DNA of 64,000 bases from Nitrospirota bacterium (GTDB lineage Bacteria > Nitrospirota > Thermodesulfovibrionia > Thermodesulfovibrionales > UBA9159). The DNA lies in contig CAVOUE010000006.1 of NCBI GenBank assembly GCA_963699545.1, positions 64,001-128,000 of the forward strand, in the 5' to 3' direction. The translations under genes and the position numbers were made by a program. A model generated the notes under the pieces. It searched no databases. It saw only the letters and a program-made list of their open reading frames with translations, and was not told the DNA's origin. Positions 4,311 through 37,467 of the stretch are shown here, one piece after another. The first letter of the stretch is position 1; each line of letters starts with the position of its first letter.

Positions 4311-5399
4311 CTATCTGCTCCTCTTACCACTTACTCTTTCCTTCTCCATTTTCAAAGGCACGTAACTGCAGAAGGGCTCCTCTTCAAGATAATCTCCGTG
4401 CACGGAATAGGCCCTGGCCCTGCAGCCACCGCAGACGTTCACGTACTCGCAGGAACCGCACCTGCCCTTGTATTTCTTGAAATCCCTCAGCTCCTTAAAA
4501 AGCTCCGACTTCTCCCATATGTCCTTAAAGGACTGCTCCATGACATTGCCCGCCGACTTGGGGAAATAGCTGCAGGGAAGGACATCGCCGTCAACGTTGA
4601 TGAGGCAGATCAGCTGCCCCGCAATGCAGCCCTTTGAGCCTCCCGTGGAAAACTTCAGCGTCCTGCGCTGGAACTTCACCTTCTCTTCTTTCGCTTTCTG
4701 GAGCACCACTCTGTAATAGTGGGGGGCACAGGTCGGTCGGACCAGCATGTCATCTTCGTCCTTCTCCATCTGATAGTGCCACTCGAGGATATCCTCATAG
4801 TCCTCCTTGGAGATCAGCTCGTTCATGATCTCCTCGCCTCTTCCCGTGGGCACGATCATGAACATATACCACGCCGTAGCGCCGAGCTCCTTGGAGAGCC
4901 TGTACACCCTCGGGATCTCTTCCTGGTTCCTCTTGGTGAATGACGAATTGACGATGAATTCGATGCCGTGCTTCTTGAAGAGCTTAGCAGCGTTTATGGT
5001 CCCTGAAAATGCGCCCTTCTCGTTCCTGAAATCGTCATGCACACCTTCCGTGGACCCGTCGAGGCTAAGGGAGACGATCCTGATGCCCGAATCCCTGATC
5101 TTCCCGCATATCTCATCTGTGACAAGGGTGCCGTTGGTGGCGAGGCACATCCTGAGCCCTTTCCCTGTGCCATATCGGGCTATCTCAAAGACATCGCTCC
5201 TGATCAGCGGTTCCCCGCCTGAGAGGACCACCACGGGTTGCGCATAGCTCGCTATGTTGTCCAGTATGGCAAAGGCCTTCTCCGTCGAGAAGTCAGGGTG
5301 CCCCTTGATCTCCATCTCGGAAGAAGAGCGGCAATGAACGCACCTCAGGTTGCATCTCCTCGTGATCTCCCACGCTATCCACTTCGGCTTAAATTCCAT
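4311..5399 (-). CDS. ahbD: Radical SAM/SPASM heme-biosynthesis enzyme, AhbD/NirJ-like (probable coproheme decarboxylase)
   Basis: [49 protein letters not shown]; directly upstream of hemE. Confidence 0.75.
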
Positions 5400-10044: not shown

Positions 10045-10104
10045 TTGACATCTATCCCCTTCATCAGTATAATCAGAACAATCAGCATGGTAAGTATTCC
10101 TAAG
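10045..10104 (+). promoter_or_regulatory. Perfect sigma70 promoter of the hgc operon with overlapping tandem repeats (candidate operator)
   Basis: TTGACA 10045-10050, 17-nt spacer, TATAAT 10068-10073; ATCAG at 10063, 10072, 10081, then GTAAG 10090 and CTAAG 10100. Confidence 0.85.
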
Positions 10105-10123
10105 ACATCCGGGGAGAGGTGAC

Positions 10124-10399
10124 ATGAGAAAAAGGAAAGAAGCTTTGCCTTGCACTCTATCAGCGAATAAGACCAATGCCAGTTGCAAAGTTGAATCCAT
10201 AATAAGCGTCGACGAAAGGGGACAGATGGTACTGCCCAAGGAGCTGAGGGCAAAGGCAAAGATTAATGCCGGCGACAAATTGGCGATTACAAGCTGGGAG
10301 AAGGACGGGGAGGTCTGCTGCATAACCCTCATCAAGGTGGAAGATCTTGTGGAGATGGTAAAAGGGCAACTCGGCCCGATAATCAAAGAGATCCTGTAA
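10124..10399 (+). CDS. hgcC: HgcAB-associated AbrB/MazE-type DNA-binding protein
   Basis: CKVESIISVDERGQMVLPKELR...AGDKL swapped-hairpin signature plus VCC; immediately upstream of hgcA. Confidence 0.85.
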   Translation: MRKRKEALPCTLSANKTNASCKVESIISVDERGQMVLPKELRAKAKINAGDKLAITSWEKDGEVCCITLIKVEDLVEMVKGQLGPIIKEIL

Positions 10400-10441
10400 A
10401 ACTCTTGAAGTATGATCGAACTGAAATTCAGAAATATAGGC

Positions 10442-11611
10442 ATGAAAGACGATAAGAAGGGATCCGTATCTGTGCCCCGATGCGGCTGTGCAAGTTACGC
10501 TGGCAATGTGGATCACAAACCTGTGGCGGAATCTTGTTGCCCCGGAACCCGGGGGAAAGCGCCGGGATGGGTGACCGGAACTGTTGCGTCCCCAATCGGC
10601 TTGATCTTCCGGGTGTCGCCCGAACTTTCAAGAGCGGATATTTGGGAGCACGTCAAATGCAGAATAAGCGCATTCAGGAACGGTTATACGGTTGACCCCG
10701 GCCTGTACGCCGTGGGCGATCCGGATAAAGACTCTGATGTCCTTGCAAGTGCAAACTATAAGTTCAGTTTTGATATGCTCAGGAGCGAACTGAAAGGGCT
10801 TAATGTCTGGCTCCTTGTTCTGGATACGAAAGGTATCAATGTATGGTGTGCCGCAGGGAAGAGTACCTTTGGCAGCGATGAGCTGGCGAAACGCATTTCC
10901 ATGACCCAGTTAGATAAAGTAGTCGCGCACAAAAGGGTTATCGTTCCCCAGCTTGGTGCGCCAGGGGTTAGTGCACATCGGGTAAAACAGGCTACCGGGT
11001 TCAAGGTCTTTTTCGGACCGGTATATGCTCAAGATATCTCCGCGTATGTCAGGGGAGGATATAAAGCAACGAGAGAGATGCGAAGAGTGAAGTTCAGCTT
11101 TTCTGACAGGCTTGTTCTCACTCCCATGGAAATCAATCCTGCGATGAAGAAATACTATCCCTTATATGCTCTCCTCATACTATGCATTTTTGGGCTTTCC
11201 CCATCGGGTATCTCGTTCAGAGACGCATTCACCGGCGGCCTGCCCTTTCTCCTTCTCGGCCTTGTATCAGTGCTTTCCGGGGCATTGTTCACCCCTCTGC
11301 TTCTCCCTTTCGTTCCTTTCAGGTCTTTTGCCGTCAAGGGGTGGATTGTCGGAATGCTTTCTGTCTTTCTTTCGCTTACACTGATCTCTCCCCTCAATCC
11401 GTCGAATACGACACTTCTCATTTTCACCTATCTGTTCTTCCCTCTGTTAAGTTCCTATGTTGCGCTTCAGTTCACCGGGTCAACTACGTTTACGGGGATG
11501 TCGGGGGTGAAGAAGGAACTGAGGATCGCTATCCCTGCTTACCTTTTTTCGGGTGGAGTTTCCCTGGTCCTGCTGTCAATATTCACACTTGCCCGGTGGG
11601 GGCTCTTATGA
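10442..11611 (+). CDS. hgcA: Mercury methylation corrinoid protein (start 10412 or 10442)
   Basis: Cap-helix motif GINVWCAAGK, PGLYAVG, PQLGAPGV, C-terminal TM helices, FTGSTTFTGMSGVKKE. Confidence 0.98.
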   Translation: MKDDKKGSVSVPRCGCASYAGNVDHKPVAESCCPGTRGKAPGWVTGTVASPIGLIFRVSPELSRADIWEHVKCRISAFRNGYTVDPGLYAVGDPDKDSDVLASANYKFSFDMLRSELKGLNVWLLVLDTKGINVWCAAGKSTFGSDELAKRISMTQLDKVVAHKRVIVPQLGAPGVSAHRVKQATGFKVFFGPVYAQDISAYVRGGYKATREMRRVKFSFSDRLVLTPMEINPAMKKYYPLYALLILCIFGLSPSGISFRDAFTGGLPFLLLGLVSVLSGALFTPLLLPFVPFRSFAVKGWIVGMLSVFLSLTLISPLNPSNTTLLIFTYLFFPLLSSYVALQFTGSTTFTGMSGVKKELRIAIPAYLFSGGVSLVLLSIFTLARWGLL

Positions 11612-11904
11612 AATACCTGCTGGGCGTTGCAAGCCTCGAACTTTTCCCAGATAAGTGCACAGGCTGCGGGATGTGCGTCGAAGTGTGCCCCCATGAAGTG
11701 TTCACACTGACGGACAGGACAGTGGCAATCCTGGACAAGGACAGGTGCATGGAGTGCGGAGCCTGCGTGAATAACTGTGCCTTTGGCGCGTTGAGTGTCA
11801 ATAGAGGGGTTGGATGCGCTGCAGCTCTCATCAACAGCATGATCACCGGCGGTGAGCCTTCCTGCGACTGCAGCGAAAAAGGGGAAACGAGTGATTGCTG
11901 CTGA
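11608..11904 (+). CDS. hgcB: Mercury methylation 2[4Fe-4S] ferredoxin
   Basis: ATGA overlap with hgcA stop; CTGCGMCVEVCP and CMECGACVNNC; GVGCAAA; C-terminal CDC...SDCC. Confidence 0.97.
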   Translation: MKYLLGVASLELFPDKCTGCGMCVEVCPHEVFTLTDRTVAILDKDRCMECGACVNNCAFGALSVNRGVGCAAALINSMITGGEPSCDCSEKGETSDCC

Positions 11905-11936
11905 TCTCGTCAAAAAGGAAAGTAAGGAGGAGAAAA

Positions 11937-12188
11937 ATGGATAATCGCACAAAAGAATTGATAGCGGTGGGAGCATCGGTGACCGCAAACTGTCAGCCAT
12001 GTTTGCAATACCACGTGAGCAAAGCTCTTGAAAGCGGAGCAAATGAAGAGGAAATCAGGGAAGCCGTTTCGGTGGCAAAGATGGTGCGAAAGGGTGCGAT
12101 GGCGAAAATGGACCAGTTTGCTTCAGGTGTATTCAATACCGCAGAAGCAGCAGTACGCCCTTCGAGAGAGGGGTGTGGGTGCAGCTGA
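11937..12188 (+). CDS. Carboxymuconolactone decarboxylase / AhpD-like CxxC protein
   Basis: AAGGAGG RBS; KELIAVGASVTANCQPCLQYH...GANEEEIREA; tail GCGCS. Confidence 0.85.
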   Translation: MDNRTKELIAVGASVTANCQPCLQYHVSKALESGANEEEIREAVSVAKMVRKGAMAKMDQFASGVFNTAEAAVRPSREGCGCS

Positions 12189-12198
12189 CACGACTTGC

Positions 12199-13289
12199 CT
12201 ACGACCGGCTCCGGGAGGTTGAATAGCGAGGCGCAAGGATGGCGAGGATCTGTTCCTGCACTTCTTCCGGCGTCATGATGGCGCCGCCGGGCCTGCCATA
12301 GAAATGGACCTTTGATTTTCCGCTGATCGAGAGTCTCACATCCTCCACCATCTGTCCTGCGTTCAGTTCGATGGTGAGGAATTCCCTCCCCTTTCCGGCG
12401 AGAGCGTGAAGTTCCTTTTCAGGGAAGGGGAAAAGGGTAACGGGCCTGAAGAGCCCCACTCTGAAGCCGTCATGCCTCAGTTTCCTCACCGCGGAATGAG
12501 CGATCCTTGCAGTGATGCCGAAGGCGACGACGATGAGTTCTGCATCATCGGTATAGAAGGTGTCATAACGCACTTCCGTCTCTTTCATCCTCCGGTACTT
12601 CTCCTGCAGGAGATTGTTCCTCATCTCCAGTTCTCCTTCGCCCATATAGAGGGACTTCAGAACATTGGGCTCTCTTCCCCTGCATCCCGTAAGGGCCCAG
12701 GTCTTTTCAGGAAGCCCGGGGTCCACATAGGGAGTCGGGAAAAAGGCTCCATCATCTGCCCGAGTATTCCGTCGGCAAGGATCATTGCAGGGTTCCGGTA
12801 TTCGTCGGACTTGTCAAAGGCGAGCATGGTCGCATCCCAGAGTTCCTGGAGATTGTACGGCGCATAAACGAGGAGCTTGTAGTCACCGTGTCCCCCTCCC
12901 TTCACCGCCTGAAAATAGTCCGCCTGACTGCCTGATATATTCCCAAGACCGGGACCGCCCCGCTGCATGTTCACGATCACTGCGGGAAGTTCCGACCCCA
13001 CCAGGAACGAGATGCCTTCCTGCTTCAGACTTACCCCCGGACTACTGGAGGAGGTCATGGCCCTCGTCCCGCACGCCGAAGCGCCGTACACCATGTTAAT
13101 GGCAGCCAGTTCGCTCTCGGCCTGGATGAATATCCCGTCCACTTCGGGCATCCTCCTGGACATGTACTCAGGGATCTCGTTCTGGGGAGTAATGGGATAC
13201 CCTGCATAAAAACGGCATCCGGCCTGAACAGCAGCCTCTGCTATCACCTCGTTGCCCTTCATGAACAATTTCTCCTGCATGGGTTGCAT
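12199..13289 (-). CDS. vorB: 2-oxoacid:ferredoxin oxidoreductase alpha subunit (VorB-like), frameshift near 12730
   Basis: [30 protein letters not shown]-terminal [12 protein letters not shown] and ELNAGQM are in ORF 12199..12726. Confidence 0.88.
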
Positions 13290-20087: not shown

Positions 20088-21155
20088 TTATGTCGCCATT
20101 ACACTAACTGGTAGGATGTTGTAGCCATAATTATAGCTCTTATCATAGACATAAGTATTGCCGTCTATCATAGAAATTATGTATGCACTTGCATCACCAG
20201 TGGATGTCCAGTAATAGGCAGGTGCAACATTTCTAAAGCCGATGATTTTCAACAAAGAAGATATATCCTTCTCGTACCCTGTCTGACTCTTGGCAAAGTC
20301 AATAATAGTTTTCAATTCATCCAGAGAAGGAAGCCTCCAGTCGCTCCGTCCTGCATACAGGTCGCTATTCATGTTTGACAAGTATTCAAGAACAACACTC
20401 CATCTCATGCCTCCGCCCATATTTGCCTGCTTTGGCCATATTAGTCCTGTTTTTTTGTCTTGGATTATCAAATCCGAAAACAAAAACCTCATCTCAACTG
20501 CTTGTTTGATAGCTTGTTTCCCTTGCTCCTGTGCTTGCTTGATGGCTTGGTAACTTTTCTCTCGTTCTTCTGCCTCTGCTTGCACTCGCTTGATAGCCTG
20601 GTAACGTTTCTCGCGTTCTTCTGCTTCTGCTTGTGCTTGTTCGATCGTTCGGACACGTTTCTCTTGCTCGTTTGTTTCTGAGTTAGTCAATGTGTTTTTA
20701 CTGGACCACCGTTCAAAAAGAGTACCACCAATATTCGGAGAAAACTCTTTGATCGCATCGTCCATCTTCGTAATATATCTATTCAAAAGGCTGATAATAT
20801 TATTACCGTTAATTAATTCGATTGCTTTATTCTGGCTGAAAGAAATTGCTTGTTTGGTAAAATCAGAAGTTGTTATTAGGATTCCTTTATTGGCATTTTC
20901 GTGCATCATCGCACCGTACAACTCTCTCACTATGGGTTCGCCAACATTATTGCCAGGCGTGTATTTCTTGCACTGAATCACATAACGACCACCCACAATA
21001 GGTTGCTCACTCACTGCGATTATGTCTATACCACCATCACCCGAAATTTTGGTAGTGGAAGCATTGAATTGCATTTTTGTCAGTAAAGTTCTTATTAGTT
21101 CCTCGAACTCACGCGGAGCCAATTTTAAAAGGCTGTCGATTTCAAAAAGTTCCAT
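20088..21155 (-). CDS. Mrr-like PD-(D/E)xK endonuclease fused to a coiled-coil repeat and a DUF1566 (Lcl C-terminal) domain
   Basis: PREFEELI...SGDGGIDI...IQCKKY...VRELYG...ITTSDFT; QAEAEEREKxYQAIK x2; DKKTGLIW...GRSDWRLPSLDEL...YYWTST. Confidence 0.85.
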   Translation of the reverse strand: MELFEIDSLLKLAPREFEELIRTLLTKMQFNASTTKISGDGGIDIIAVSEQPIVGGRYVIQCKKYTPGNNVGEPIVRELYGAMMHENANKGILITTSDFTKQAISFSQNKAIELINGNNIISLLNRYITKMDDAIKEFSPNIGGTLFERWSSKNTLTNSETNEQEKRVRTIEQAQAEAEEREKRYQAIKRVQAEAEEREKSYQAIKQAQEQGKQAIKQAVEMRFLFSDLIIQDKKTGLIWPKQANMGGGMRWSVVLEYLSNMNSDLYAGRSDWRLPSLDELKTIIDFAKSQTGYEKDISSLLKIIGFRNVAPAYYWTSTGDASAYIISMIDGNTYVYDKSYNYGYNILPVSVMAT

Positions 21156-35822: not shown

Positions 35823-37467
35823 ACCATAACCATCAACTCTCCTCTAAGAGAGTTTCCCTATATCATCCGCTGGAGGGACGACCGGTGCAAGAGGTGCGGC
35901 AAATGCACCGCGGTCTGCCCGGTGAAGGCGATCGAGCCTGCTGTAAAGGTCCAGAGGACCGTCCATTCGGAAGGACCGGTCCCCCAGCCCACAGCCGCAA
36001 AAAAGATCGTCCAGGTTGTGGAGCAGGTCACTGACATGGACCGGTACTGCACGGGCTGCGGTACCTGCACCCTAGTGTGTCCCAATGAGGCCATTGAGCC
36101 TGAATATAATCCCCAGAACAAGTTTCTGCATTACAAGAACAAAGGCGGGGAGCCGTACAAGAGGGGCGGCAGGAGGAACGATCCTTCCGTATCGACCCTT
36201 GACAGGCTCAAGTTCACAAGGATATCCATGCTCACCGACCCGGCGCTCGACGCCGGCAGGCACGAGTTCCGCGTGAGGACACTCCTGGGAAGGATACTTG
36301 CCTCCGGAAGAGCTGCCGTTGAAGACGATCGGAGGAAAGCTGGTAGTGGATAAGGACAGCGGCAGGTTCATACCTCCGGTGAGGGAGATATATCCCCATC
36401 ATGATCGGCAGCATGTCTGTTGGCGCGCTTTCTCCTCCCATGTGGGAGGGTCTCGCCATGGGTGTGGCGTACCTAAACGAGGTGGAAGGGTTGCCGGTGG
36501 TGATGTGCTCCGGTGAGGGAGGAATGCCGCCGAGACTGCTGAGATCAAAGTATCTGAAATACTTCATCATCCAGATCGCATCGGGATATTTCGGATGGGA
36601 CGAGATCATCCACGCGCTGCCGCATATGGTGGAAGACCCTGCTGCCATAGAGATCAAGTACGGTCAGGGTGCGAAGCCCGGTGACGGCGGACTTCTGATG
36701 GCTCAGAAGGTCCTTAAGCTGATTGCGAGCATCAGGGGGGTGCCCCAGTTCGTTGACCTCTGCGTCGCCTCCCACACACCAGACAAAGTACTCGATCGAA
36801 GAGGCGGTGGCAAAGATGATCCAGTCCATGTCCATGGCGTGGGGCTTCAGGGTTCCGGTCTACCCGAAGATCTCCGGCACGAAGACAGCCCGTGCGGTGC
36901 TGAATAACCTTGCAAGGAATCCCTATGCCGCTGCACTCTCGCATTGACGGTGAGGACGGCGGGACAGGCGCTGCATACAATGTTTCCATGGACAAGATGG
37001 GACATCCCATCGCGTCCAATATCAGAGACTGTTATCTTGACCTTGTGAAACAGGGCAAGCAGAACGAGCTCCCCCTGATCGCGGCAGGAGGTGTGGGCAA
37101 AAAGGGGAACCTGGCGGCAAACGCTGCCGCCCTCATCATGCTCGGCGCGTCAGCGGTCTCGATCGGGAAATATATCATGCAGGCCGCGGCAGACTGTTTC
37201 GGCGATGAGTACAACCGCTGCAACCTCTGCAATACCGGAAAATGTCCGAGGGGCATCACCACGCAGGACCCCAAACTCTACCGAAGGCTCGATGCTGACA
37301 AGGTGGCTGAACGGGTCGTGGAGGTCTTCAAGGCTGCCGATGTGGAGATGCGGAAGATATTCGCCCCTATGGGAAGAAGCACGGAGCTGCCCATCGGAAT
37401 GTCTGACGGGCTGAGCATAGAGGATAAGGCGATGGCAGAGAGGTTAGAGATAAACTATGCGTGCTAA
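35801..37467 (+). CDS. Glutamate synthase ferredoxin plus FMN-binding subunit (GltB2-like), several frameshifts
   Basis: CKRCGKCTAVCP, CTGCGTCTLVCP, GSMSVGALS, CSGEGG, EIKYGQGAKPGDGG, GGTGAA, CNLCNTGKCPRGITTQ. Confidence 0.88.

Follow-up and report, generated by a model that had tools for sequence, protein, structure and literature searches.

What controls an hgcAB operon in whose surroundings no ArsR-type gene is found? Expression control of hgcAB has been described as an open question, and the abundance of the genes as a poor predictor of methylmercury (10.1101/2022.10.17.512643). According to that study, the only hgcAB regulator tested so far is an ArsR-type protein of one Pseudodesulfovibrio strain; in P. 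mercurii ND132, ArsR2 is encoded directly upstream of hgcAB, is co-transcribed with it and controls it, and hgcA is expressed more strongly in the presence of As(III) as well as As(V). In the present study, we analysed a window of 64,000 nt from a Nitrospirota bacterium (UBA9159; GCA_963699545.1, contig CAVOUE010000006.1, positions 64,001-128,000, forward strand), in which no ArsR-type or ars gene was detected among the 59 ORFs scanned in Pfam. Zhang et al. in 2023 proposed the gene in front of hgcA, hgcC, as a regulator of hgcAB and read it as a PrlF/MazE antitoxin (PMC10349881), a reading that was still cited in 2026 (PMC13362967). In the cultured Methanocella paludicola SANAE, the neighbour of hgcA belongs to the same family as hgcC (PMC10349881). 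The words promoter, operator and palindrom- are absent from the text of PMC10349881. A preliminary description of this DNA had suggested an ArsR-independent control of Hg methylation that was not known to be described; the idea of a regulator had already been published (PMC10349881), but the operator was new to our search. Neither an HgcC operator nor a link between hgcC and arsM was found in print, subscription-only papers and bioRxiv supplements lying outside that search. We consider it probable that the repeat array described below is the operator of HgcC, and that HgcC, whose gene opens an hgcC-hgcA-hgcB(-ahpD-like) operon, represses this operon until it is released by a signal, most likely a metal(loid).

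The sigma-70 promoter of the operon (Table 1) is as perfect as had been claimed: from 10045 to 10073 both hexamers agree with the consensus at every position, and TTGACA-N16-18-TATAAT occurs only once in the 64 kb, as against 0.02 times in shuffled sequence. The three ATCAG repeats of the preliminary description were also recovered at 10063, 10072 and 10081, in steps of exactly 9 bp; with one mismatch or less allowed, this triple pattern is present once in the window and 0.01 times by expectation. As had been noted, the repeats lie over the -10 hexamer and the likely start site, which promoter geometry would place at about 10080-10081, 7-8 nt past the -10 hexamer and at the third unit. The hexamer TATAAT itself is formed by the A/T spacer that separates units 1 and 2, together with a single base of either unit. 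The continuation of the array as GTAAG (10090) and CTAAG (10100) did not survive the comparison. The score of the fourth slot, with two mismatches, is matched by 15% of the out-of-register pentamers in hgcC promoters (1510/10204), and the signal of a fourth unit is weak in the hgcA-linked consensus; the fifth slot has four mismatches to the consensus unit TCWGA, and CTAAG stands off the 9-bp register. Three units are supported in the window, not five. The sole other match to the array in the window, at 36694 with up to two mismatches, combines two exact units with one that is degenerate; it lies inside a Glu_synthase-like ORF and was taken as chance. Since an Rfam search of the hgcC 5' leader gave no match at E up to 1, and the leader folds no better than shuffled sequence (z 0.39), an RNA element in the leader was rejected.

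Table 1. Promoter elements, repeat units and genes of the hgcC operon in the window
Feature	Position	Strand	Remarks
-35 hexamer, TTGACA	10045-10050	+	12/12 promoter match jointly with the -10 hexamer
Putative operator unit 1, TCAGT	10064-10068	+	One mismatch to TCWGA; columns invariant in the 11-promoter alignment
-10 hexamer, TATAAT	10068-10073	+	17-nt spacer after TTGACA
Putative operator unit 2, TCAGA	10073-10077	+	Exact TCWGA
Putative operator unit 3, TCAGC	10082-10086	+	One mismatch; at the inferred transcription start
Fourth 9-bp slot, TAAGT	10091-10095	+	Two mismatches; doubtful as a unit
Shine-Dalgarno-like GGAGAGG	10113-10119	+	4 nt ahead of the ATG; read from the sequence
hgcC	10124-10399	+	91 aa, AbrB/SpoVT-type swapped-hairpin; Cys10, Cys21, Cys65, Cys66
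hgcA	10412-11611	+	NF040863, 387.6 bits (cut-off 275); begins 12 nt past the hgcC stop
hgcB	11608-11904	+	NF040864, 120 bits (cut-off 99); ATG overlaps the hgcA stop (ATGA)
AhpD/CMD-like gene	11895-12188	+	PF02627, 54.2 bits; TIGR00778, 47.8 bits (cut-off 27.8); overlaps the hgcB end

Three short units, two of them with a mismatch, and the failure of the fourth and fifth repeats would be in keeping with a chance feature of an A/T-rich promoter. This explanation is refuted by the comparison with other hgcC promoters, and we give it a negligible probability. Of 531 matching genome loci, the best 80 supplied the relatives. Three of these 80 (L006, L018 and L059), in which the pattern [VI]DERGQMV was unmatched and no start codon was set, were excluded from the promoter and protein counts and kept in the 80-locus tally of hgcA and arsM; 77 loci plus the window made a set of 78 promoters. 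An array was defined as three TCWGA units at a 9-bp period with no more than 2 mismatches in 15 positions, within 150 nt upstream of hgcC. Such an array was present in 70 of the 78 promoters, and in 76 when three mismatches were accepted, with a taxonomic range from Nitrospirota to Methanoperedens. Base shuffles yielded 0.06 positive promoters per 78, control windows of 150 nt elsewhere in the same loci were positive in 2 of 2719 cases, and periods of 7, 8, 10, 11 and 12 bp at the same stringency gave 0, 0, 1, 0 and 0 promoters. Eight promoters exceeded two mismatches, and the array is unconvincing in L003 (4 mismatches) and L057 (5 mismatches, with only 94 nt of upstream DNA).

The same period was found by measures that do not start from the unit. 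Base autocorrelation between -100 and -11 peaked at lags of 9, 18 and 27 (0.379, 0.375 and 0.346, with neighbouring lags at about 0.27), and the most enriched 5-mers of the hgcC promoters were TCTGA (16.5-fold), TCAGA (13.8-fold) and ATCAG (12.7-fold). Gaps between successive exact units were 9, 18, 27 or 36 nt in 86 of 98 cases. An array of period 9-10 bp with the word T(C/A)AG had been predicted for other hgcC promoters; the 9-bp array was found as predicted, but the word that is conserved in it reads TC(A/T)GA, a palindrome. An alignment of 11 hgcA-linked promoters showed invariance solely in TTGAC and in the columns of the array; neither the spacer between the -35 and -10 hexamers nor the flanks are conserved. 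This alignment had also hinted at auxiliary units upstream of the -35 hexamer, which were rejected: an exact unit within the 60 nt upstream was found in 3 of 49 loci, as against 4.3 expected, and none was in register. The array together with hgcC offers a sequence signature for finding co-regulated genes in metagenomes.

The location of the array with respect to the promoter elements is also kept among these loci from the best 80 of 531. The best-scoring -35 element was an exact TTGACA in 50 of 61 bacterial hgcC promoters; 49 of the 61 scored 10 or more and 16 agreed with the consensus at all 12 positions. In 49 of the 51 bacterial promoters that could be scored, the best triple starts at -6 to +24 nt, counted from the first base of the -10 hexamer; the TCAGTATAAT overlap of the window, with a unit starting 4 nt ahead of the -10, recurs in 16 of the 51. 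In Archaea, a unit is followed by AAA and then by a TATA-like box in all 17 loci, and in 13 of the 17 a further unit stands exactly 18 nt on, so that the 9-bp phase is preserved across the box; this order of unit, box and unit occurs in 1 of 61 bacterial loci. The positions support the view that the array sits where a bound repressor would block RNA polymerase in Bacteria, or TBP/TFB in Archaea. Some promoters can be activated by AbrB-type proteins, and it may be asked whether HgcC activates rather than represses, or whether another factor binds the array. With a promoter at consensus strength (12/12 here) no activator is needed. Activation is also opposed by the site of the array, over the -10 hexamer and start site in Bacteria and on both sides of the TATA-like box in Archaea, and no further gene that could encode another factor is common to the bacterial and archaeal loci among the best 80 of 531. 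We therefore regard both possibilities as very unlikely, and repression by HgcC as the better reading of the array.

Downstream of the array, hgcC, hgcA and hgcB are closely packed, no terminator-like site was found between hgcC and hgcA, and the AhpD/CMD-like gene is probably the last gene of the operon. By ORF calls, the gap from hgcC to the next gene was 40 nt or less in 55 of 69 loci. Searches with tblastn in the best 80 of 531 loci placed arsM downstream of hgcC in 48 and hgcAB in 31. The next tblastn-detected gene on the same strand was hgcA or arsM in 79 of the 80 loci and in the window; in the remaining locus, the contig ends 184 nt after hgcC. The flanking ORFs formed 219 clusters, of which only ArsM (42), HgcA (27) and HgcB (15) exceed 5 members, and the genes common to the loci are hgcC and the gene that follows it. 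The preliminary description had suggested that HgcC represses hgcCAB: the adjoining hgcA and hgcB are in keeping with this, but a specificity for hgcAB does not stand beside the arsM loci. The HgcC family is not specific to mercury or hgcAB, and from these two tallies the family name of NF040962 ('HgcAB-associated protein HgcC') is too narrow. No second hgcC and no arsM was found within the 64-kb window. Separate clades for the hgcAB-linked and arsM-linked proteins were considered and rejected, the quick tree from 93 columns being poorly resolved; it required at least 6 switches between the two partners, compared with a mean of 24 for shuffled labels, and its well-supported branches force only 1.

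The same neighbourhoods bear on the antitoxin reading, in which hgcAB would merely ride on a toxin-antitoxin operon. The MazE or PrlF labels that Pfam and KEGG give to the gene speak for it, and MazE/PrlF antitoxins have in common with HgcC the family PF04014 and autoregulation through the same fold, which for HgcC is proposed. Unlike for these antitoxins, no adjacent toxin gene was found for HgcC in the best 80 of 531 loci or in the window, the gene downstream encodes a metal(loid)-methylation enzyme with the regularity given above, and the flanking ORFs hold no recurrent third family. We find this reading highly improbable. For a gene that has been read as a toxin-antitoxin component, there is now a defined candidate target in the DNA and a prediction of how its product acts. 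This candidate target is conserved in Bacteria as well as in Archaea, in each case with the promoter element proper to that domain.

The description of HgcC as an AbrB/MazE-fold protein with a CC pair and two more cysteines was confirmed: it matches PF04014 (MazE_antitoxin/AbrB) with 27.6 bits (cut-off 24.7) and TIGR01439 with 31.4 bits (cut-off 28.3), and it carries Cys65-Cys66, Cys10 and Cys21. Its score against NF040962 was 116.8 bits, well over the cut-off of 70. All 78 aligned proteins (best 80 of 531 loci, plus the window) matched NF040962 at E of 1e-5 or better and also TIGR01439, and the 14 arsM-linked members scored singly against NF040962 all reached 114-133 bits. By family profile, the nearest solved relatives are swapped-hairpin domains that bind DNA, namely SpoVT (2ro5, the N-domain, E 7.6e-5, and 2w1t), the Sulfolobus AbrB-like proteins (5itj and 2l66) and AbrB (1yfb). 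AbrB, SpoVT and Sso7c4, the AbrB-like protein of Sulfolobus, share TIGR01439 with HgcC and differ from it in several respects: HgcC adds the Cys21/Cys65/Cys66 signature, its C-terminal tail is only short, at about 20 aa, and the conserved Gly is flanked by Arg and Gln in HgcC and by Leu and Arg in SpoVT in the alignment. AbrB sites are loosely defined, whereas the predicted site of HgcC is sharply defined. Among representatives at 50% identity, R32, G33, Q34, K39 and R42 are retained in 134-149 of 148-150. Of the 77 labelled proteins from the best 80 of 531 loci, 75 have Cys21, 72 have Cys65 and 77 have Cys66; in the wider set of 150 representatives, the figures are 107 of 142, 117 of 146 and 132 of 146, respectively, and the cysteines of this set vary more than its DNA-binding residues do. 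The HgcC of the window is without a second vicinal pair, position 20 being Ser. In the best 80 of 531 loci this position is Cys in 38 of 47 arsM-linked and 15 of 30 hgcA-linked proteins, and a CC pair is found in a Cys-rich N-terminal tail in 28 of 47 and 11 of 30.

We infer the link between HgcC and the array from their co-occurrence. In the mechanism proposed here, one twofold-symmetric HgcC dimer would bind each palindromic TCWGA pentamer, and three dimers, or up to five or six in other genomes, would stand side by side at 9-bp spacing. This row would lie over the start site and the -10 hexamer, at a promoter of consensus strength, and the product of the first gene would thereby keep its own operon silent until some signal lifts the block. 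In the archaeal relatives, the same phased array would bracket the TATA-like box, and in most other genomes the same pair of HgcC and operator would control arsM. A point against this arrangement is that the 9-bp period differs from the helical repeat of 10.5 bp, so that adjacent dimers must spiral round the DNA or alter its twist.

The likeness to MraZ that had been drawn is an apt one, as MraZ binds four phased boxes cooperatively with one subunit per box (PMC12957436). According to the same source, MraZ has, like HgcC, the AbrB/SpoVT-type 'cradle' motif and is encoded by the first gene of its operon, which MraZ represses; as proposed for HgcC, its boxes are short, fixed in spacing and laid over the start site, with one module per box. 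The two systems differ in their construction. The MraZ chain of about 150 aa has two AbrB-like halves and forms rings of 8-9 subunits, and its boxes in the dcw-cluster, GTG(G/T), are repeated directly at a 10-bp period, with spacers of 6 nt. The HgcC units are palindromes with 4-nt spacers and a 9-bp period, and its 91 aa hold one AbrB-like half, so that a dimer must form one module. HgcC scored 15.9 bits against the MraZ model NF001476, far below the cut-off of 162, and it does not belong to the MraZ family. We know of no conserved cysteines that serve as a sensor in MraZ.

As for the signal, both alternative targets of HgcC, arsM and hgcAB, methylate thiophilic metal(loid)s, and with arsM downstream in the larger share of the best loci, mercury is no more likely than arsenic to be the signal. 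The most likely effector would be a thiophilic metal(loid), As(III) in the first place and Hg(II) in the second, which may release HgcC by binding to Cys21, Cys65 and Cys66. The lower constancy of these cysteines in the wider set and the Ser at position 20 in the protein of the window speak against this. A vicinal Cys-Cys with a third Cys is typical of As(III)/Hg(II) sites, as in ArsD, some ArsR proteins and MerT. The small protein ArsD has vicinal cysteine pairs and acts both as a binder of As(III) and as the repressor of an ars operon; its fold is thioredoxin-like and its operator is unlike the one proposed for HgcC, and the resemblance is functional only. ArsR2, of the ArsR/SmtB family, has a winged-helix fold unrelated to HgcC, and no ArsR/SmtB winged-helix match (PF01022-type) was found for HgcC in Pfam or NCBIfam. 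The array may also be real while HgcC senses a redox or iron-sulfur signal through a disulfide or a bound cluster. The conserved cysteines are equally suited as a thiol switch, an AhpD-like thiol-redox gene stands at the end of the operon, HgcAB is oxygen-sensitive and, to our knowledge, all hgcC carriers appear anaerobic. On the other hand, arsM, the more frequent partner, has no obvious need for redox control, and the arrangement of the cysteines is that of the metal(loid) sites named above. On these grounds we judge a redox signal unlikely and keep to a metal(loid).

A wider proposal can be made only tentatively, and we do not yet lean towards it: HgcC may found a new repressor class that combines metal(loid) sensing with the AbrB swapped-hairpin fold, and in which a cysteine triad and a 9-bp-phased TCWGA operator would switch on arsM or hgcAB in Bacteria and Archaea. 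Such a class would stand outside the MerR, ArsR/SmtB, CsoR, Fur, DtxR, NikR and CopY families. If this is true, arsenic or thiophilic metals would induce the hgcAB operon of Nitrospirota and of many methanogen relatives, the unexplained native role of HgcAB would be connected with the detoxification of metalloids, and arsenic would serve to predict methylmercury production in the field. That HgcC more often stands in front of arsM is in itself an independent link between mercury methylation and arsenic.

The cysteines also allow a double role, in which HgcC would be a repressor and, like ArsD, a metal(loid) chaperone from which ArsM or HgcAB would receive As(III) or Hg(II). The vicinal cysteines and the Cys-rich N-terminal tail are in agreement with such a role, and one cluster of longer HgcC matches, P0125 (15 sequences, 377 aa), is an HgcC-ArsM fusion. 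This is the single fusion cluster among the 6 longer matches of those listed and possibly a read-through, and the supposed clients, HgcA/B and ArsM, are unrelated to each other. A chaperone function is thus improbable in our view, and HgcC is best regarded as a putative repressor. Four of the longer matches (164-186 aa) are apparently over-long start calls, as judged from P0121. The match P0126 (221 aa) carries extra Pfam domains.

In the present study, 2937 HgcC homologues were collected at E <= 0.001 and 33 of them were aligned as query for a scan of the genome collection, where 531 stretches encode a relative; the best 80 were analysed. The bacterial loci come from Nitrospirota, Thermodesulfobacteriota and other 'delta' lineages, Chloroflexota, Actinomycetota, Zixibacteria, Aminicenantes and Gemmatimonadota, and 17 records are archaeal (Methanoperedens, Methanocellales, Methanotrichaceae, Thermoplasmatota and others). 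The hgcC start was set in 77 loci, leaving out L006, L018 and L059, which the motif pattern missed, and the 150 nt upstream of each start, together with the window, gave 78 promoters. In nearly all of these, the words TCAGA and TCTGA, mutual reverse complements, stand in rows four A/T-rich bases apart. The preliminary description had taken 9-bp repeats over the -10 box as the HgcC operator, with a periodic T(C/A)AG motif expected upstream of other hgcC homologues. The period was confirmed in these best 80 of 531 loci: a TCWGA triple (W, A or T) at 9-bp period was found with at most 2/15 mismatches in 70/78 promoters, window included, and with at most 3/15 in 76/78. The motif wording has to be replaced, as the unit is the palindromic TCWGA. 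At periods of 7, 8, 10, 11 and 12, triples with at most two mismatches occurred in 0, 0, 1, 0 and 0 of the 78 promoters, shuffled promoters gave 0.06/78 by the same criterion, and of the remaining 150-nt windows in these loci 2/2719 qualified. The gap from one exact unit to the next was 9 nt in 49 of 98 cases, 18 in 28, 27 in seven and 36 in two, and a pattern-free base autocorrelation over -100 to -11 peaked at lags 9, 18 and 27. Enrichment was highest for the pentamers TCTGA, TCAGA and ATCAG (12.7- to 16.5-fold). The unit consensus is wwTCwGAww, with TCAGA (78) and TCTGA (76) equally common among 280 units, and an array usually holds 3-5 units over a median span of 32 nt.

In the window, the hgcC promoter scored 12/12 in the promoter scan, and a perfect TTGACA-N16-18-TATAAT is present as a single copy in 64 kb, against 0.02 in dinucleotide shuffles. 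ATCAG copies start at 10063, 10072 and 10081 (+ strand). Three copies spaced exactly 9 bp apart are seen at this one place in the window, where chance would give 0.01 such triples even if one mismatch is tolerated. The window repeats are real and far from chance, and both the promoter and the triple are as originally read. The proposed continuation as GTAAG (10090) and CTAAG (10100) is not supported, since the fourth slot (TAAGT, 10091) has two mismatches, the same as 15% of out-of-register pentamers, the fifth has four, and CTAAG lies off the 9-bp phase. No second array was found in the window.

Promoter, operator and operon features of the hgcC region in the window
Feature	Position	Strand	Remarks
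-35 hexamer TTGACA	10045-10050	+	sequence read
Operator unit 1, TCAGT	10064	+	supported
-10 hexamer TATAAT	10068-10073	+	17-nt spacer after -35
Operator unit 2, TCAGA	10073	+	supported
Operator unit 3, TCAGC	10082	+	supported
Shine-Dalgarno-like GGAGAGG	4 nt upstream of ATG 10124	+	
hgcC	10124-10399	+	ORF read; 91 aa; Cys10, Cys21, Cys65-Cys66
hgcA	10412-11611	+	NF040863, 387.6 bits; start 12 nt past hgcC
hgcB	11608-11904	+	NF040864, 120 bits; ATG overlaps hgcA stop
AhpD/CMD-like gene	11895-12188	+	CxxC-type core; overlaps hgcB end

Exact TTGACA was present in 50/61 bacterial hgcC promoters among the best 80 of 531 loci; 16/61 were perfect (12/12) and 49/61 scored at least 10. The best triple starts from 6 nt before to 24 nt after the first -10 base in 49/51 scorable bacterial promoters. 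In 16/51, all hgcA-linked (hgcA next after hgcC) and the window among them, unit 1 overlaps the -10 as TCAGTATAAT, so that the -10 hexamer is built of the spacer between units 1 and 2. When the window and ten related hgcA-linked promoters were aligned, the only invariant columns were TTGAC and the array, with free variation in both flanks and in the -35/-10 spacer. In the archaeal promoters of the same 80 loci, the order is unit, AAA, TATA-like octamer in 17/17, and the next unit lies exactly 18 nt on in 13/17, hence the TATA-like box replaces one unit and the phase is kept. This arrangement was seen in 1/61 bacterial loci, namely L029 (1-98), a record titled 'bacterium' that combines it with a TTGACA-type promoter. 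One operator is thus fitted to the bacterial promoter in one domain and to the archaeal promoter in the other, and a protein bound to it would in either case keep the transcription machinery off. At another hgcC locus, L015 (~2842-2991), the promoter-operator (-35, array and ribosome site) is tandem-duplicated upstream of hgcC in two nearly identical copies of ~76 nt.

The window HgcC scored 116.8 bits (cut-off 70) with NCBIfam NF040962 'HgcAB-associated protein HgcC', 31.4 (28.3) with the AbrB domain model TIGR01439 and 27.6 (24.7) with Pfam MazE_antitoxin, in agreement with the AbrB/MazE fold, CC pair and two further cysteines first reported. No terminator-like site was found between hgcC and hgcA, no second hgcC or arsM was found within the window, and a scan of 59 window ORFs gave no ArsR-type or ars gene. 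The best NCBIfam similarities of the AhpD/CMD-like gene, all sub-cut-off, are to NF041537 (AhpD domains fused to arsenite methyltransferase selenoproteins) and the GSU3128 family, and a homologue lies directly upstream of hgcA in hgcC locus L012 (4340-4591); this gene is another thread from the hgc operon to arsenic or thiol chemistry.

The earlier assumption of mercury specificity was not sustained, as hgcA follows hgcC in just 31/80 loci (best 80 of 531) and arsM in 48/80, all of one ORF cluster; at the remaining locus the contig stops 184 nt past hgcC. Three members of this cluster matched arsenite methyltransferase ArsM (NF008823) with 354-364 bits against 263. By our ORF calls, the gap from hgcC to the downstream gene is at most 40 nt in 55/69 loci. 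The arsM-linked proteins tested against the 'HgcC' model are full members (14/14, 114-133 bits), and the operator with at most two mismatches was present at 21/27 bacterial and 15/15 archaeal arsM-linked loci. In a quick, poorly resolved HgcC tree the two linkages are mixed, with at least 6 switches, of which well-supported branches force only 1. Beside these two genes, only small lineage-specific groups of conserved neighbours recurred next to hgcC in the best 80 of 531 loci, for example tRNA ligase genes in Dehalococcoidia. HgcC is thereby left as the obvious candidate to bind the array, and a toxin partner is ruled out in these loci; the antitoxin reading of hgcC was rejected, because no recurrent toxin gene stands beside it and the next gene is hgcA or arsM. 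At locus L002, an arsenate reductase-like gene follows hgcB (4746-5195, +; TIGR02691-like, 108.6 bits, below the cut-off of 174), and its cluster has 5 members lying two to three genes from hgcC among the same 80 loci.

A profile of 78 HgcC proteins matched SpoVT (2ro5, 2w1t), Sulfolobus AbrB-like proteins (5itj, 5itm, 2l66) and AbrB in the PDB over residues ~22-71. Clustering at 50% identity (E <= 1e-10) gave 371 clusters, a compact family, and in sets of 146-150 representatives at 50% identity each of D30, R32, G33, Q34, K39 and R42 is conserved in 134-149. On the two sides of the conserved Gly, the Leu and Arg of SpoVT are replaced by Arg and Gln in HgcC, by comparison of the sequences a family-specific change in the putative DNA-reading loop. 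Of the cysteines, Cys21 is found in 75/77 labelled proteins, Cys65 in 72/77 and Cys66 in 77/77; a wider set gave 107/142, 117/146 and 132/146. Position 20 is Cys in 38/47 arsM-linked vs 15/30 hgcA-linked proteins, and the N-terminal tail holds a CC pair in 28/47 vs 11/30. Homology suggests a dimer, a role for the ~20-aa C-terminal tail and a grouping of the cysteines in space.

We take HgcC as a probable phased-repeat autorepressor of the AbrB/MraZ kind and liken its array to that of MraZ. There, one AbrB-type 'cradle' sits on each GTG(G/T) box, binding to the four boxes, set apart by 6-nt spacers, is cooperative, and the start site lies within the first box (PMC12957436). By analogy, one HgcC homodimer would form one swapped-hairpin module reading one palindromic TCWGA, adjacent dimers would touch along the 9-bp ladder, and the filament would span -10 to ~+15 of an otherwise maximal-strength promoter. 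The conserved pairing of gene and array makes HgcC very probably the regulator acting at this operator, and it is likely that HgcC represses the operon, which would then be autorepressed. A more tentative suggestion is that HgcC senses a metal(loid), the operon opening when a thiophilic one occupies Cys21, Cys65 and Cys66; the main rival for the signal is a redox or cluster-based switch. For metal(loid) sensing, arsenite would be the first candidate and Hg(II) the second, because arsM is the commoner partner of hgcC and because arsenic induces hgcA in P. mercurii ND132, via a regulator unrelated to HgcC (10.1101/2022.10.17.512643). Less probably, HgcC would be repressor and chaperone at once, as hinted by a single cluster of HgcC-ArsM fusions, P0125 (377 aa; full-length HgcC and full-length ArsM in one frame; 15 member sequences, 2 contigs), which could be a genuine fusion or read-through of overlapping genes.

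The regulator role is not new, in correction of the preliminary description. In Zhang et al. 2023 (PMC10349881), a gene with the annotation PrlF/MazE/AbrB is reported immediately upstream of hgcA in 14/35 contigs and 8/31 confirmed methylators, 6 of these archaeal. The authors suggested that it is a putative regulator, mainly of archaea, in a toxin-antitoxin frame; the Methanocella paludicola gene in the supplement is an HgcC-family member. In the main text of that paper, the words promoter, operator and palindrom- are absent and arsM is mentioned once in passing. The name HgcC originates from NCBIfam. In the searchable literature, which mostly excludes subscription journals, hgcC was absent as a name from work on mercury methylation, the names hgcC and hgcA stood together only in an unrelated clinical study, and nothing relevant paired arsM or arsenite with AbrB or an antitoxin. 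Within that scope, no earlier description appears to exist of the operator with its palindromic unit and 9-bp phase, of its two-domain conservation, of the arsM partnership or of the rejection of the antitoxin reading. The regulator-operator finding is clearly useful to a question still open in the cycling of mercury and arsenic.

Elsewhere in the window, a 2-oxoacid:ferredoxin oxidoreductase alpha-type subunit is split into overlapping ORFs (12202-12726 and 12660-13289, -; POR_N, then PFOR_II), which suggests a frameshift or assembly error; no adjoining partner subunits were seen. Two adjacent ORFs in different frames (36401-36904 and 36910-37464, +) match Glu_synthase profile positions 70-177 and 234-367, which again points to a frameshift. 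Apart from the hgcC array, the window has a single near-match to the operator (36694, two exact TCWGA units), which falls inside the first of these ORFs and was taken as chance. The ORF at 20091-21155 (-) joins an Mrr-type restriction endonuclease domain to an Lcl C-terminal domain and is unrelated to the operator.
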